Origin: Candidatus Saccharimonadota bacterium
GTDB taxonomy: Bacteria > Patescibacteriota > Saccharimonadia > CAILAD01 > BJGX01
DNA: 64,000 nt
Reading direction: 5' to 3'
Assembly: GCA_016191105.1 (NCBI GenBank)
Contig: JACPPH010000002.1
Coordinates: 3,049-67,048, forward strand
This document shows, piece by piece, positions 15,001 to 18,000 of this stretch. Made by a program: the position numbers. How positions within the stretch are numbered: position 1 is the first letter of the stretch; each line of letters starts with the position of its first letter.

Positions 15001-18000
15001 AAAGAACGTAAAAAATACGGGCTCAAGAAGGCCCGCAAGGCTCCACAATTTAGTAAGCGTTAGTTTATATCAAAAAAGACCCCGAGAGGGTCTTTTTTGA
15101 TTGCTCAACAGATTAGGATCGAACAATCTAAGTGTTCAATGTGTTGTAATATGTTTTTGGCCGACTCACAATTTAGAATGATTTCTAAACTCTGAGTCGG
15201 GCCCCCGAAGGGTACCCGCTCATTGCGTATCGCTTCGGAGGCGTTTTTAGCGGCGGTAGATGAAGGTGCTGCCTGGGCCCGCGTAGACGAACGTGTATTG
15301 ACCCCTGCGGATAGCAGTGCCAGTAGGCACAGGTACGTCGATAGTGAGCTCACACCTTCGCCGGTTCACCCACTTCGAGAAACCTGACATCGTCTTGTCT
15401 TCGTAGATACGCATCCTTGGAGCCCAGACACTGATAGTTGTATCCTGGTCTGGGAGGTCGGTGGTTCGTCCAACAAGTTCGAAGCTCGAGGTGCCATTGA
15501 AGGGACCATCGTTGTAGAGCCTGGCCATGAAGCCGCTGATCTCTTCGATCGATGGCCCCTCGGTGATGGTGAAGATCTTGCTCAGGCGCTCGTCCTCGAA
15601 CCCGAAGGCGGTGTCGAACACCACCTGCCGATCGTTTGGATGGGTAATACTGATGTTGTTGGCCATGGGGTTCTCCTCATTGTAGCCAATTGGTACCAGG
15701 ACGGACCGTCCGTCGAGATAGGTATTACAATAAAAGCACATAAAAATCAAGTACATTTTTGACCAAACCGCAACTTAGAATAAGCTTCTAAGCTCTGGTT
15801 CGGCCGGCCCCCGTGTATACGGGAGCCGGGTGGCCGAAGTTCAGGACTTCTTGCGCATGGCGTTCTTCTCACCGGGCCACGGGAAGATCGCCTCTGCAGG
15901 CGTACCAGAATGCGGACTTCACGATCGCGCGCTGGTAGGTGCGAACGTTCTCTGGTGTGACCGTGATCGGGTCGAACTTGTACCCGTAGAAGTGCACACT
16001 CTTGTACAGCAGTCCGACGTCGTTCTCGTTGCATCGAATGAGGAAGGCTGCGATGATGTCATCGATCCCAACCTTGTTTTGCAGAGCGAACTCCGCAGCG
16101 GTTTGGGCAAGGGAGACGAAACCAGCGGCGAAGTCTCTCCGGAGTGTGGCCCCGAGTTGATCGGCAGTTTTCGTAGTCTTGGGCATTTCCTCTCCTTGCT
16201 AGGCGGGCAAGCTCTCGGCTTGTCCGACGAACATGGTCTTGAGCTTCTCGATCTTCTGCTCGAGTTCGCGTAGGGTGTCTTCGACTTCGCCAAGGTCTTC
16301 GAGGCCATCGGCATCAACCCCCGCGACCGCAGCGATTCGTTCGCGGGCGACGTGGATGTTGCCAATGGCACCACTTACTTTCACACCGCCCATCGTGATG
16401 AATCCGACGGTTGACTCCCAGTCTTGCTTGGTTGCTTCAATCGGCACGTTGCTACCAACTTTCTTTGTAGATGAGCTTAAGGCTTTTACATGTTATAATA
16501 AAATAAACTAAAAGTCAAGTGTTTTTGGTTGAATTTTAAGGTATAATACTCTTATGGTAGACGCCAAGCTAATTCGTAAGCTAATATTCTTTTCGGTTCT
16601 AATTATAGCGACCGGAGCGACAGTCTTGTCGTTAACCGAACAGATAAGCTTTGTTGAAGGGCTGTACCGAAGCGTGTACTTGGTGCTGGCTCACCACGAC
16701 AATTTCTATACCAAGGGCTTAATACCTAGGCTAACAGTAGTGGGGTTAATCGTCTCCAGCTTGGTGATCATAGGCTATTTGATAAAAATTCTGGCAGATT
16801 ATATGATTAACCTAGGCGATGGCCTAAAAAGGAACAAAGTGAAAGCACAACTACTACACACCAAAGAACACTTTATTATTTGCGGTTTAGGCCGGGTGGG
16901 CAGCCAGGTGGCGCGCGAGCTGGCCGACGAACATTTGCCGTTTGTGGCTATCGATCGCGACGAAGACAAGGTAAAAGAGGCCATTAAGTGCGGCTACACA
17001 GCCTTTGTGGGCGACAGCACCAAAGAAGAAGTCTTGGCCAAAGCCAAGATCGACAAGGCCAAAGGCTTGGTAGCAGCTCTGGGCGAAGATTATCATAATC
17101 TTTTTGTAACCTTAGCCGCGCGCCAGATTAACCCGGGGTTGTTTATTGTGGCTAGGGTTAATAACGAGGCCAACAAAGAGCGCATGTTGCAGGCCGGTGC
17201 CGATAAGGTGGCTCAGCCCAGCCAAATTGGTGGCTTTCATATGGCGGCCATGGTATTACGACCCAATGTTGTCGATTTTTTGGAGGTGCTAAGTACCAAC
17301 AAGAACTCCGAACTTCAGGTCGAAGAACTGGTGGTGCCCAGGCACTCCAAGGTGATTGGCGACCGCTTAAGCACACTGGCTAACCATAATACCGGCGCGA
17401 CGGTGTTGGCTATTAACAATGCCGATGGCGGTAGCCGGGTAAATCCATCGGGCAAAGAAATGATTTATGCTGGCGATAAACTGATTGTAATGGGTACTCG
17501 CACCCAACTCGATGCTTTAAGCACCCACGTTTAAACTCATGAAGAATCGTGTCCAAAGCGGGGGAGGGCAAGGCGATGTTGAAGTTATTTTTCGAAATAA
17601 CGATGTAATTGTAGTTAACAAGCCGGCTGGGCTGTTGACCCACCCAACAAGCGAGAAACCAAATGAGCCATCGGTAGCTGGCATTTTTAAATCAGAAGTT
17701 GAAGATGCCGATGAACTGCGGCCGGGCATTGTGCACCGGCTCGACAAAGATACCTCGGGTGTAATGATTTTGGCACGTAACCCAAAAACCAAAGAATTTT
17801 TGCAGGCTCAATTTAAAGACCGCGCAGTTCGCAAACAGTATTTGAGCCTGGTGTGGGGGCGTATGCCGCACGCACGAGCTCGACTAGAGTTGCCGATTGC
17901 TCGTAGTTTGCAAAAAGGCAATACCATGCGTGTGAGTCACGCGGGCAAGATGGCGGTTTCGGAGTATGCTGTTGAACGAGAGTTTAGTGACTTTGACTTG

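Follow-up and report, generated by a model that had tools for sequence, protein, structure and literature searches.

Between the ribosomal protein gene rpsI and a trkA-like gene, at positions 15100-16450 of the 64-kb stretch of DNA analysed here (the window, which belongs to a 214-kb contig of a Candidatus Saccharibacteria bacterium), lies a G+C-rich islet with three minus-strand orphan genes, here called g1, g2 and g3. It is a compositionally foreign segment that is best viewed as a two-module array of hairpin-tagged orphan-gene cassettes at a clade-specific hot spot, and it falls among the small horizontally acquired islets or cassette-like arrays. Reading along the minus strand, module 1 consists of promoter P1, g1, g2, hairpin A2 and hairpin B2, and module 2 of promoter P2, a 5' untranslated region (UTR), g3, hairpin A1 and hairpin B1. 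These repeated promoter and twin-hairpin modules are a more informative feature than the composition, and were missed in an earlier note on this DNA. We favour, with moderate confidence, the view that hairpin-tagged orphan-gene modules have been inserted repeatedly at the site beside the trkA-like gene, a hot spot supplied from an unsampled pool of about 60% G+C.

Composition and organization of the islet

The earlier note had claimed an abrupt G+C-rich islet at these positions, with a bias toward G and C in third codon positions, and both observations stand. The islet has 54.5% G+C against 46.4% for the whole window (z = 2.2); only 1.1% of 1350-nt windows reach this value, all of them belonging to this islet or to a second one near 52.5 kb. 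The G+C content at third codon positions (GC3) is 0.687 in g1, 0.726 in g2 and 0.723 in g3, against 0.478±0.068 in the 71 other open reading frames (ORFs) of the window, among which comparable values are seen only in the ORFs of the second islet. By dinucleotide relative-abundance distance the islet ranks first of 418 windows (z = 3.4), and by tetranucleotide distance third of 418 (z = 3.3). In a fine profile the G+C content climbs at about 15200 and drops at about 16450, and an A+T-rich internal promoter region (15722-15760) breaks the islet. The genes had been placed right after the rpsI terminator; they do lie between that terminator (15069-15101) and the start of the trkA-like gene (16554), though an A+T-rich spacer of about 60 nt intervenes between the terminator and the G+C-rich part.

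Predicted promoter P1 (16490..16518, minus strand; TTGACT, 17 nt, TAACAT) was detected by a consensus scan. P2 (15722..15750, minus strand; TTGATT, 17 nt, TAATAC), likewise predicted, falls below the threshold of that scan and was recognised by alignment, as direct repeat D2: it is 79% identical to P1 over 28 nt, and is a paralogue both of P1 and of the promoter found at the same locus in L001, a 1173-nt contig from sample SRR21686417. The positional orthologue of P1 is this L001 promoter, which stands ahead of a g3 homologue; the 18-nt AAAAACACTTGACTTTTA is identical in both. The 5' UTR of g3 (15673..15714, minus strand) holds a small hairpin, GACGGACGGTCCGTC (15714-15700), and a GAGGAG ribosome-binding site (RBS; 15678-15673), both of which are kept in L001. 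An alignment of the two places module 1 and the second promoter copy of the window after the ancestral promoter position and ahead of the g3 5' UTR.

The motif YCAAAAAY is found at all module boundaries of the window and also ahead of the promoter in L001, which has GAAATCAAAAAAG in its place after hairpin B; the boundaries of the L013-type modules described below are without the A-run. Beyond hairpin B1 the window has a 58-nt A+T-rich tail, missing from L001, within which there is a promoter-like remnant (15110..15139, minus strand; TTGAAC, 18 nt, TAATCT) that, to judge by its sequence, may be left over from a lost third module.

Twin hairpins at the module ends

Each module closes with two abutting hairpins. 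In module 2 the G+C-rich hairpin A1 (15201..15242, minus strand) starts 5 nt past the g3 stop codon and abuts, with no spacer, hairpin B1 (15161..15200, minus strand), which was detected as inverted repeat I1, by RNA folding and by covariance model R1 (73.8 bits) and reads CCGACTCA-G-AGTTTAGAA-atca-TTCTAAATT-G-TGAGTCGG. In module 1 hairpin A2 (15804..15829, minus strand; CCGGCTCCCG-tataca-CGGGGGCCGG), also G+C-rich and found by RNA folding, abuts hairpin B2 (15763..15803, minus strand; inverted repeat I4, RNA fold, R1 score 62.7 bits), which has a 5-nt loop and an outer stem that covaries with that of B1. A1 and B1 together fold at -45.9 kcal/mol (z = -6.9), and the A+B pairs examined have fold z-scores between -4.6 and -8 relative to shuffled sequence. 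Hairpin A has 10-12 G+C-rich pairs, with a different sequence for each gene family, and always abuts hairpin B; hairpin B lies 5-60 nt past the stop codons, fused to this G+C-rich stem.

Hairpin B is built around the core TTTAGAA…TTCTAAA, and its two copies in the window are 77% identical over a 26-nt repeat unit, D1. In an alignment of five copies, 94% of the cells are paired over 17 pairs, four of which show compensatory double changes; when the structure is slid by 1-3 columns, just 19-52% of the cells pair. All five copies share a G·G mismatch and a G·U pair, by which the stem is divided into an outer and an inner box; the loops vary, and the outer arms occur as CCGACTC/GAGTCGG, CCGAACC/GGTTTGG and CCAACC/GATTGG. 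Model R1 finds hairpin B after three different ORF sets, with no further copy in the 64-kb window or in loci L002-L012 and L014. The pattern CAGAGYTTAGAA-N3-5-TTCTARRTTG has three matches in 241 million metagenome records (L013, L014 and L015), of which the one in L014 is partial and within a coding region; it has none among the viral contigs of IMG/VR, and Rfam gives no match at or near the hairpins. Identity over hairpins A+B is 93% between the window and L001 and 91% between L013 and L015, against 64% and 69%, respectively, for the coding sequences.

The twin hairpin would form the functional 3' end of the module, most likely as a terminator lacking a U-tract or as a block to 3' exonucleases in the sense transcript, and might also provide a conserved sequence for module exchange; its role may be that of an RNA 3' end, a recombination site, or both. 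A terminator scan of the minus strand gave none at hairpin A or B, and CCAAAAAC and TCAAAAAT come next after the hairpins. In three of the five hairpin copies the sense-strand fold is favoured by 5-8 kcal/mol.

Several other roles for hairpin B were considered. It was rejected as an operator because only B2 has a promoter downstream. As a chromosomal dif site it was also rejected: the GC skew stays positive and never switches sign, and genes to either side run in the same direction. B1 can be read as CAGAGTTTAGA-AATCAT-TCTAAATTGTG, with 11-bp arms and a 6-bp spacer in the manner of an Xer/dif site, with B2 then having a 7-nt spacer; to our knowledge the sequence bears no resemblance to the dif consensus. 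A palindromic core with crossover at its center is unlikely, the arms of each copy being co-adapted; since the arms match within each copy and the copies differ, a central crossover is ruled out for the event that joined the two modules. Finally, a dispersed REP-like repeat was rejected, as R1 recovers only the two local copies in the window.

The site in related Saccharibacteria

Ten Saccharibacteria-type loci were fetched around relatives of the trkA-like protein. The empty junction that the earlier note had proposed looking for is present in seven of these (L002, L004, L006, L007, L008, L010 and L011), where the rpsI terminator is followed by the trkA-like gene after 50-100 nt, and the islet is therefore a lineage-specific insertion. 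Contigs L005 and L009 stop at the junction, and L003 carries there (1013-1594) a low-G+C gene for a GNAT acetyltransferase on the opposite strand, without hairpins, so that the junction takes other cargo too. In a neighbor-joining tree of the trkA-like protein, empty-site L010 is the closest to the window among full-length sequences and the occupied L013 is more distant; presence of the modules is therefore patchy.

The order in L001 is trkA-like gene start, promoter, 5' UTR hairpin, RBS, g3 homologue, hairpins A and B, rpsI terminator and the 3' end of rpsI, from which it follows that only module 2 is present. A third orphan ORF, of 150-151 amino acids (aa) and GC3 0.72-0.76 and unrelated to g1, g2 and g3, adjoins the trkA-like gene in L013 and L015, which represent two further Saccharibacteria species; it has its own promoter, a different hairpin A and the same hairpin B. 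An L013-type module is also present on five additional contigs, all from other samples, in the context TPR, holB, rluD, trkA-like gene and divergent cassette. The hairpin-tagged locus has the same position in four lineages, and the trkA-like gene is the constant, divergently transcribed neighbor of each hairpin-tagged module found. Four states of the site are seen: empty; occupied by the unrelated GNAT gene; occupied by the g3 module alone; and occupied by the third, unrelated G+C-rich orphan gene ending in hairpin B. Modules have therefore been gained, lost or replaced at a single site.

The L013-type haplotypes L016 and L017 differ with a synonymous divergence (dS) of 0.16 in the trkA-like gene; both of their non-coding flanks are 97-98% identical, against 89% for the cassette coding sequence. 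Of the 49 coding differences, about 20 are crowded into 40 nt, in a hypervariable patch (L016 3608-3648, L017 3598-3638; residues ~75-89) outside which the haplotypes are 96% identical; the mutations of this patch show no specificity for adenine. L016 and L021 share 93% identity in the trkA-like protein, against 58% in the cassette protein. The modules thus join a strongly constrained frame, made up of promoter, 5' UTR and twin hairpin, to fast-evolving cargo.

A rod-like structured non-coding element of about 160 nt follows the L013/L015-type cassette, in place of rpsI (L017 3940-4140; L015 676-866; L013 1-135, minus strand). It has a closing stem CCCAGCCCTGGAG…GCGGGCTGGTGG, ten compensatory pairs between two sequences and its own intrinsic terminator, and from its predicted fold it would be shaped like 6S RNA; it has no Rfam match and no copy in the window.

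The source is a metagenome-assembled genome, and a second G+C-rich islet lies in the same contig, so a chimeric joining of foreign G+C-rich reads into a Saccharibacteria contig, by assembly or binning, had to be considered. It is effectively refuted: host sequence continues on both sides within 1.5 kb, the identical islet with the same structure is present in an independent Logan assembly of SRR12113392, a different sample (SRR21686417) has the g3 module between the same flanks, and five further samples have a sister module beside the trkA-like gene.

Genes and predicted proteins

The three minus-strand ORFs of the earlier note all exist, two with the lengths given there (82 and 105 aa), while the third has 139 rather than 140 aa. 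Gene g1 (HYX70_00250; 16447..16199) has a GTG start and encodes 82 aa with an isoelectric point (pI) of 4.5; 12 nt after its stop comes g2 (HYX70_00245; 16186..15869; 105 aa, pI 9.0), with RBS AAGGAGAGG; and g3 (HYX70_00240; 15666..15247) encodes 139 aa. Another gene caller took an antisense ORF in place of g2. The coding status of g1 and g2 is judged from GC3 periodicity, RBS and operon context, since neither has a homologue.

The only relative of g3, P0002, is encoded in L001; it has 217 aa and 50% identity, with about 78 extra residues after residue 20. At the nucleotide level g3 (window 15586-15610 against L001 421-660) is short of about 78 codons after a near-identical 20-residue N-terminus, either through an in-frame deletion in the window or an insertion in L001. 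The segment missing from g3 has no significant homology with g1. The ratio of nonsynonymous to synonymous divergence (dN/dS) is 0.31 for g3 against its L001 homologue and 0.35 for the L013 against the L015 ORF; the g3 and L013/L015 families are therefore real genes under moderate constraint.

None of the three proteins encoded in the islet was recognised as a member of a family by the earlier note, and this was borne out, with no match for g1, g2 or g3 in Pfam, PHROGs, NCBIfam or PADLOC. No match in Pfam, NCBIfam or PADLOC was obtained for the homologue in L001 or for either protein of the second islet, and none in Pfam for the L013/L015 proteins. The three protein families of the modules have no significant similarity to each other; the g3 and L013 families compared profile to profile with hhalign give E = 0.15, leaving homology unsupported, and the g3 C-terminus has a weak similarity to that of the L013-type protein (shuffle p = 0.01). 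AlphaFold2 models, with a predicted local distance difference test (pLDDT) score of 33 for the g3 family and 54 for g2, are too low in confidence to use; the predictions are of four helices for g2 (low confidence) and of abundant beta-strands for g3 (very low confidence). The proteins are probably small, cytoplasmic, fast-evolving accessory proteins.

In layout g1 and g2 resemble a two-gene addiction or conflict pair. As in type II toxin-antitoxin systems, which are typical cargo of cassette arrays, they are a small co-oriented pair 12 nt apart with their own predicted promoter, an acidic upstream and a basic downstream product; unlike those systems, they match no toxin, antitoxin or defence family in Pfam, NCBIfam, PADLOC, PHROGs or PDB, and have no recognisable DNA-binding fold.

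Origin of the modules

A word-indexed search of 5.8 billion proteins returned only the queries themselves and the one g3 relative, from Saccharibacteria. For g1 and g2 this was the protein-database search made; for the g3 family an exhaustive HMMER search of 1.84 billion representative proteins was added and gave nothing credible, two marginal matches to giant proteins (E ~4e-4) being disregarded. With tblastn and blastn no homologue was found in 50,697 phages and 72,556 plasmids, where the lone nucleotide match (39 nt, E = 0.009) was taken as chance; six protein or profile scans of IMG/VR and sequence searches of PDB were also negative. Across the protein, phage, plasmid and IMG/VR searches, then, there is no identifiable donor in the sense of homologues outside the recipient clade.

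The mean G+C content of the cassette ORFs at the three codon positions (GC1/GC2/GC3) is ~0.59/0.44/0.73, a profile that by the Muto-Osawa and Lawrence-Ochman regressions presumably fits a source of about 60% G+C and not the 65-72% of Actinomyces or Schaalia; partial amelioration from a G+C-richer source may also be compatible with it. The cassette ORFs have GC3 0.72-0.83 beside flanking trkA-like genes of GC3 0.35-0.56, with a synonymous divergence between homologues of at least 1, and by a rough two-state estimate neutral evolution in situ would demand an implausible starting GC3 of ~1. Since such GC3 should decay if neutral, either most of the divergence took place in a G+C-richer pool, with repeated arrival of modules at this site, or the GC3 is actively maintained. 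The L013-type haplotypes have GC3 of 0.83 and 0.75, and third positions in the lower-G+C lineage show nine strong-to-weak changes and one weak-to-strong; the polarisation is weak and unreliable, the outgroup being too distant, and is suggestive in one lineage.

The earlier note had looked to a high-G+C actinobacterial host as donor, and to strong RBSs of actinobacterial style. Such a host-to-epibiont transfer, in which three genes of an actinobacterial host or its phage were taken up, for example by natural transformation, and inserted after the rpsI terminator, is in our judgement unlikely. High GC3 and the orthologous site being empty in relatives are in keeping with it, as are the third-position changes of the L013-type haplotypes, which fit an ongoing amelioration with the weak polarisation just mentioned, and the G+C-rich stem-loops without U-tract. 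U-tract-less "I-shaped" terminators have been described for high-G+C Actinobacteria; hairpin A is like them in being a 10-12 bp G+C-rich stem right after the stop codon with no U-run, but unlike them it is always fused to a second, sequence-conserved hairpin with an A+T core, and the genes ahead of it are without actinobacterial homology. The above searches gave none of the three proteins a homologue in Actinobacteria, actinophages or plasmids, and the codon-position profile would fit a genome of about 60% G+C better than one of 65-72%. The RBSs GAGGAG of g3 and AAGGAGAGG of g2 are indeed strong, but rank 9th and 11th of 69 in predicted anti-Shine-Dalgarno pairing, within the range of the recipient's own genome, for which the g1 RBS is average. 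Lastly, the promoter and hairpin B are common to the Saccharibacteria loci and found nowhere else in the metagenome records and IMG/VR. The story of genes stolen from the host is thus not backed by homology, and composition alone is no ground for propagating it.

On the reading favoured here, the modules would come from an unsampled gene pool of about 60% G+C, such as phages, plasmids or some other mobile DNA belonging to the epibiont or to its environment. They would insert at a hot spot on the 5' side of the trkA-like gene, which in this genome is also the junction with the rpsI terminator, to give two tandem minus-strand expression modules, each with a sigma-70-like promoter, one or more G+C-rich orphan ORFs and two abutting hairpins. 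Gene transfer into Saccharibacteria has been reported in general terms (PMC7427843), and the literature search gave no account of hairpins like these, nor of integrons in the phylum.

Several points weigh against this reading. The islet has no linked recombinase or transposase; the window as a whole contains just a serine recombinase fragment, 4.5 kb away in a separate low-G+C island. Mobility is deduced from patchy presence alone, because neither a donor nor a second location of hairpin B was found. Divergence of the g3 coding sequence between the window and L001 (64% nucleotide identity) is near that of the N-terminal part of the trkA-like gene (63-68%), and vertical co-divergence would yield the same, so that vertical descent is kept as a rival. 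Genes g1 and g2, having no homologue among the 5.8 billion proteins in the word-indexed search, could be mis-called. As to the twin hairpin, no U-tract follows either hairpin, and for the L013-type copies the antisense fold is no worse than the sense fold; nor is a role as terminator required, because in L001 the shared bidirectional rpsI terminator could end the transcript.

The vertical alternative supposes a native, fast-evolving locus: a single ancestral gene, diverged beyond recognition and here duplicated, with its UTRs conserved and its high GC3 upheld by selection or biased gene conversion. We give this a low probability. In its favour, the position is the same in four lineages, the coding divergence from L001 is similar to that of the flanks, and g3 has its weak C-terminal similarity to the L013-type protein; rapid evolution in situ is also suggested by the contrast between cassette and trkA-like protein in L016 and L021 and by the hypervariable patch in L016/L017. 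Yet L010, a genome grouping with the window, has an empty site, the hhalign comparison gives homology no support, and GC3 of 0.72-0.83 amid a host GC3 of 0.35-0.56 brings in the implausible starting value noted above.

Comparison with known systems

There is a likeness to integron cassettes with attC sites, including the integrase-less CALIN arrays (clusters of attC sites lacking integron-integrases): short ORF units stand in tandem and in one orientation, each unit ends in an imperfect hairpin whose structure is conserved by compensatory change, and unrelated, mostly orphan cargo gathers at one chromosomal site. Here, unlike there, no IntI is found, there is no R''/R' core consensus and it is the loop-proximal stem that is conserved; the hairpin has 40 nt and is preceded by a second, G+C-rich one; there are at most two modules; and where integron cassettes are promoterless and served by a common Pc, the predicted, paralogous P1 and P2 precede the modules.

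One may then suppose that hairpin B is an attC-like site folded from single-stranded DNA, with capture and excision upstream of the trkA-like gene by a recombinase encoded elsewhere; we regard this as improbable. One imperfect hairpin lies 3' of each module, in a single orientation and in a tandem array of two, and three unrelated ORF sets at a single locus are all followed by this hairpin. The G·G mismatch and G·U pair kept in all copies, with their outer and inner box, point the same way, as does YCAAAAAY at all module boundaries of the window and before the L001 promoter; the co-adapted arms are compatible with a crossover outside the stem and speak against one at its center. Against this, the Pfam hits of the ORFs from 16.5 to 61.6 kb, and the precomputed Pfam families of the genes upstream, out to 2.4 kb before the window, include no tyrosine recombinase or integrase; the attC core consensus RYYYAAC/GTTRRRY is absent; the inner rather than the outer stem is conserved, the opposite of attC; the modules have their own predicted promoters; the L013-type boundaries have no A-run; and two modules at most are seen. 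The bolder form of the idea, that hairpin B is the recombination site of an undescribed integron-like capture system of Saccharibacteria, within the candidate phyla radiation, whose recombinase is unlinked or unrecognised, is likewise doubtful; in such a system orphan modules with promoters of their own would be taken in, cut out and exchanged at one chromosomal site by way of the folded hairpin.

Repetitive extragenic palindromic (REP) sequences and bacterial interspersed mosaic elements (BIMEs) offer another comparison. They too are imperfect palindromes, often paired, just past stop codons and without a U-tract, and can shield upstream mRNA from 3' exonucleases; but REPs are scattered over a genome in tens to hundreds of copies, whereas hairpin B is found at this locus only in the window and the related loci searched, and is limited, by the 241 million metagenome records, to a narrow Saccharibacteria clade. 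With integration hot spots and orphan islets in general the islet shares an atypical composition, a place between core genes, a patchy presence with an empty site elsewhere, and orphan cargo. It differs in being unusually small (1.4 kb), in having no integrase, tRNA or direct-repeat att site, and in that all inserts share the frame of promoter and twin hairpin.

Neighboring genes and other elements

The gene before the islet, rpsI (14647..15063, plus strand), encodes ribosomal protein S9 and is the last of its operon (ORF, with a Pfam Ribosomal_S9 match on the identical gene of the Logan contig). Its bidirectional intrinsic terminator (15069..15101; inverted repeat I3) has an A-tract, a 14-bp perfect stem and a T-tract, forms the right-hand boundary of the insertion site and is conserved in L001, L003 and L010. 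On the other side, the trkA-like gene (16554..17534, plus strand) encodes a membrane-anchored protein with the NAD-binding TrkA-N and the TrkA-C domains (Pfam TrkA_N, TrkA_C).

The second G+C-rich orphan islet (52554-53880, GC3 ~0.70) lies between the rplA terminator and folA, thus, like the first, directly after the terminator of a ribosomal-protein operon. It holds a divergent pair, 53204..52605 (199 aa, 10 Cys, HYX70_00485) and 53370..53813 (147 aa, two CxxC motifs), and is closed by a long G+C-rich hairpin (53814-53852) whose loop reads CTTCGG; hairpin B is absent, and protein library, phage, plasmid, viral and PDB searches gave no match.

A low-G+C block (38-40%) at 20600-28000 adjoins tRNA-Trp (20604-20680) and is probably a degraded integrated element. 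At its start are the serine recombinase fragment (21684..20941; Resolvase and Recombinase domains, 247 aa) and a 106-aa ORF overlapping the tRNA, and it also contains an ABC-F ATPase and an APH-family kinase. Within it, a DUF3800 gene (24593..25213, plus strand) is followed on the opposite strand by a DUF3800-IX RNA motif (25212-25281; 66.9 bits, gathering threshold 36.8). Further on, at 28397-35846, is a type IV pilus cluster with T2SSE ATPase, T2SSF platform protein and several N-terminally methylated pilins, of the kind typical of Saccharibacteria, whose genomes are tiny and highly syntenic.

Directly upstream of position 1 of the window, ahead of the S10 ribosomal operon, there is a diversity-generating retroelement (L023 1-2450), with an Avd-like gene (969..1415, minus strand), a reverse transcriptase (1421..2413) and template and variable repeats of 135 nt (860-994 and 340-474, 87% identical). 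Targeting of the islet by this element was rejected, as it has its own template/variable pair, with no similarity to the islet.

Implications

How Saccharibacteria acquire genes, and from which donors, is a question for the whole candidate phyla radiation. The locus described here shows foreign, fast-evolving orphan genes entering one defined site as small self-contained modules, with a shared twin-hairpin end that is far more constrained than the genes ahead of it. If the hairpin is a recombination site, it would represent a new cassette system in a phylum with none known, and possibly a genetic landing pad in naturally transformable Saccharibacteria; if it acts at the RNA level only, it would be a compact, clade-specific terminator or stabiliser without a U-tract.

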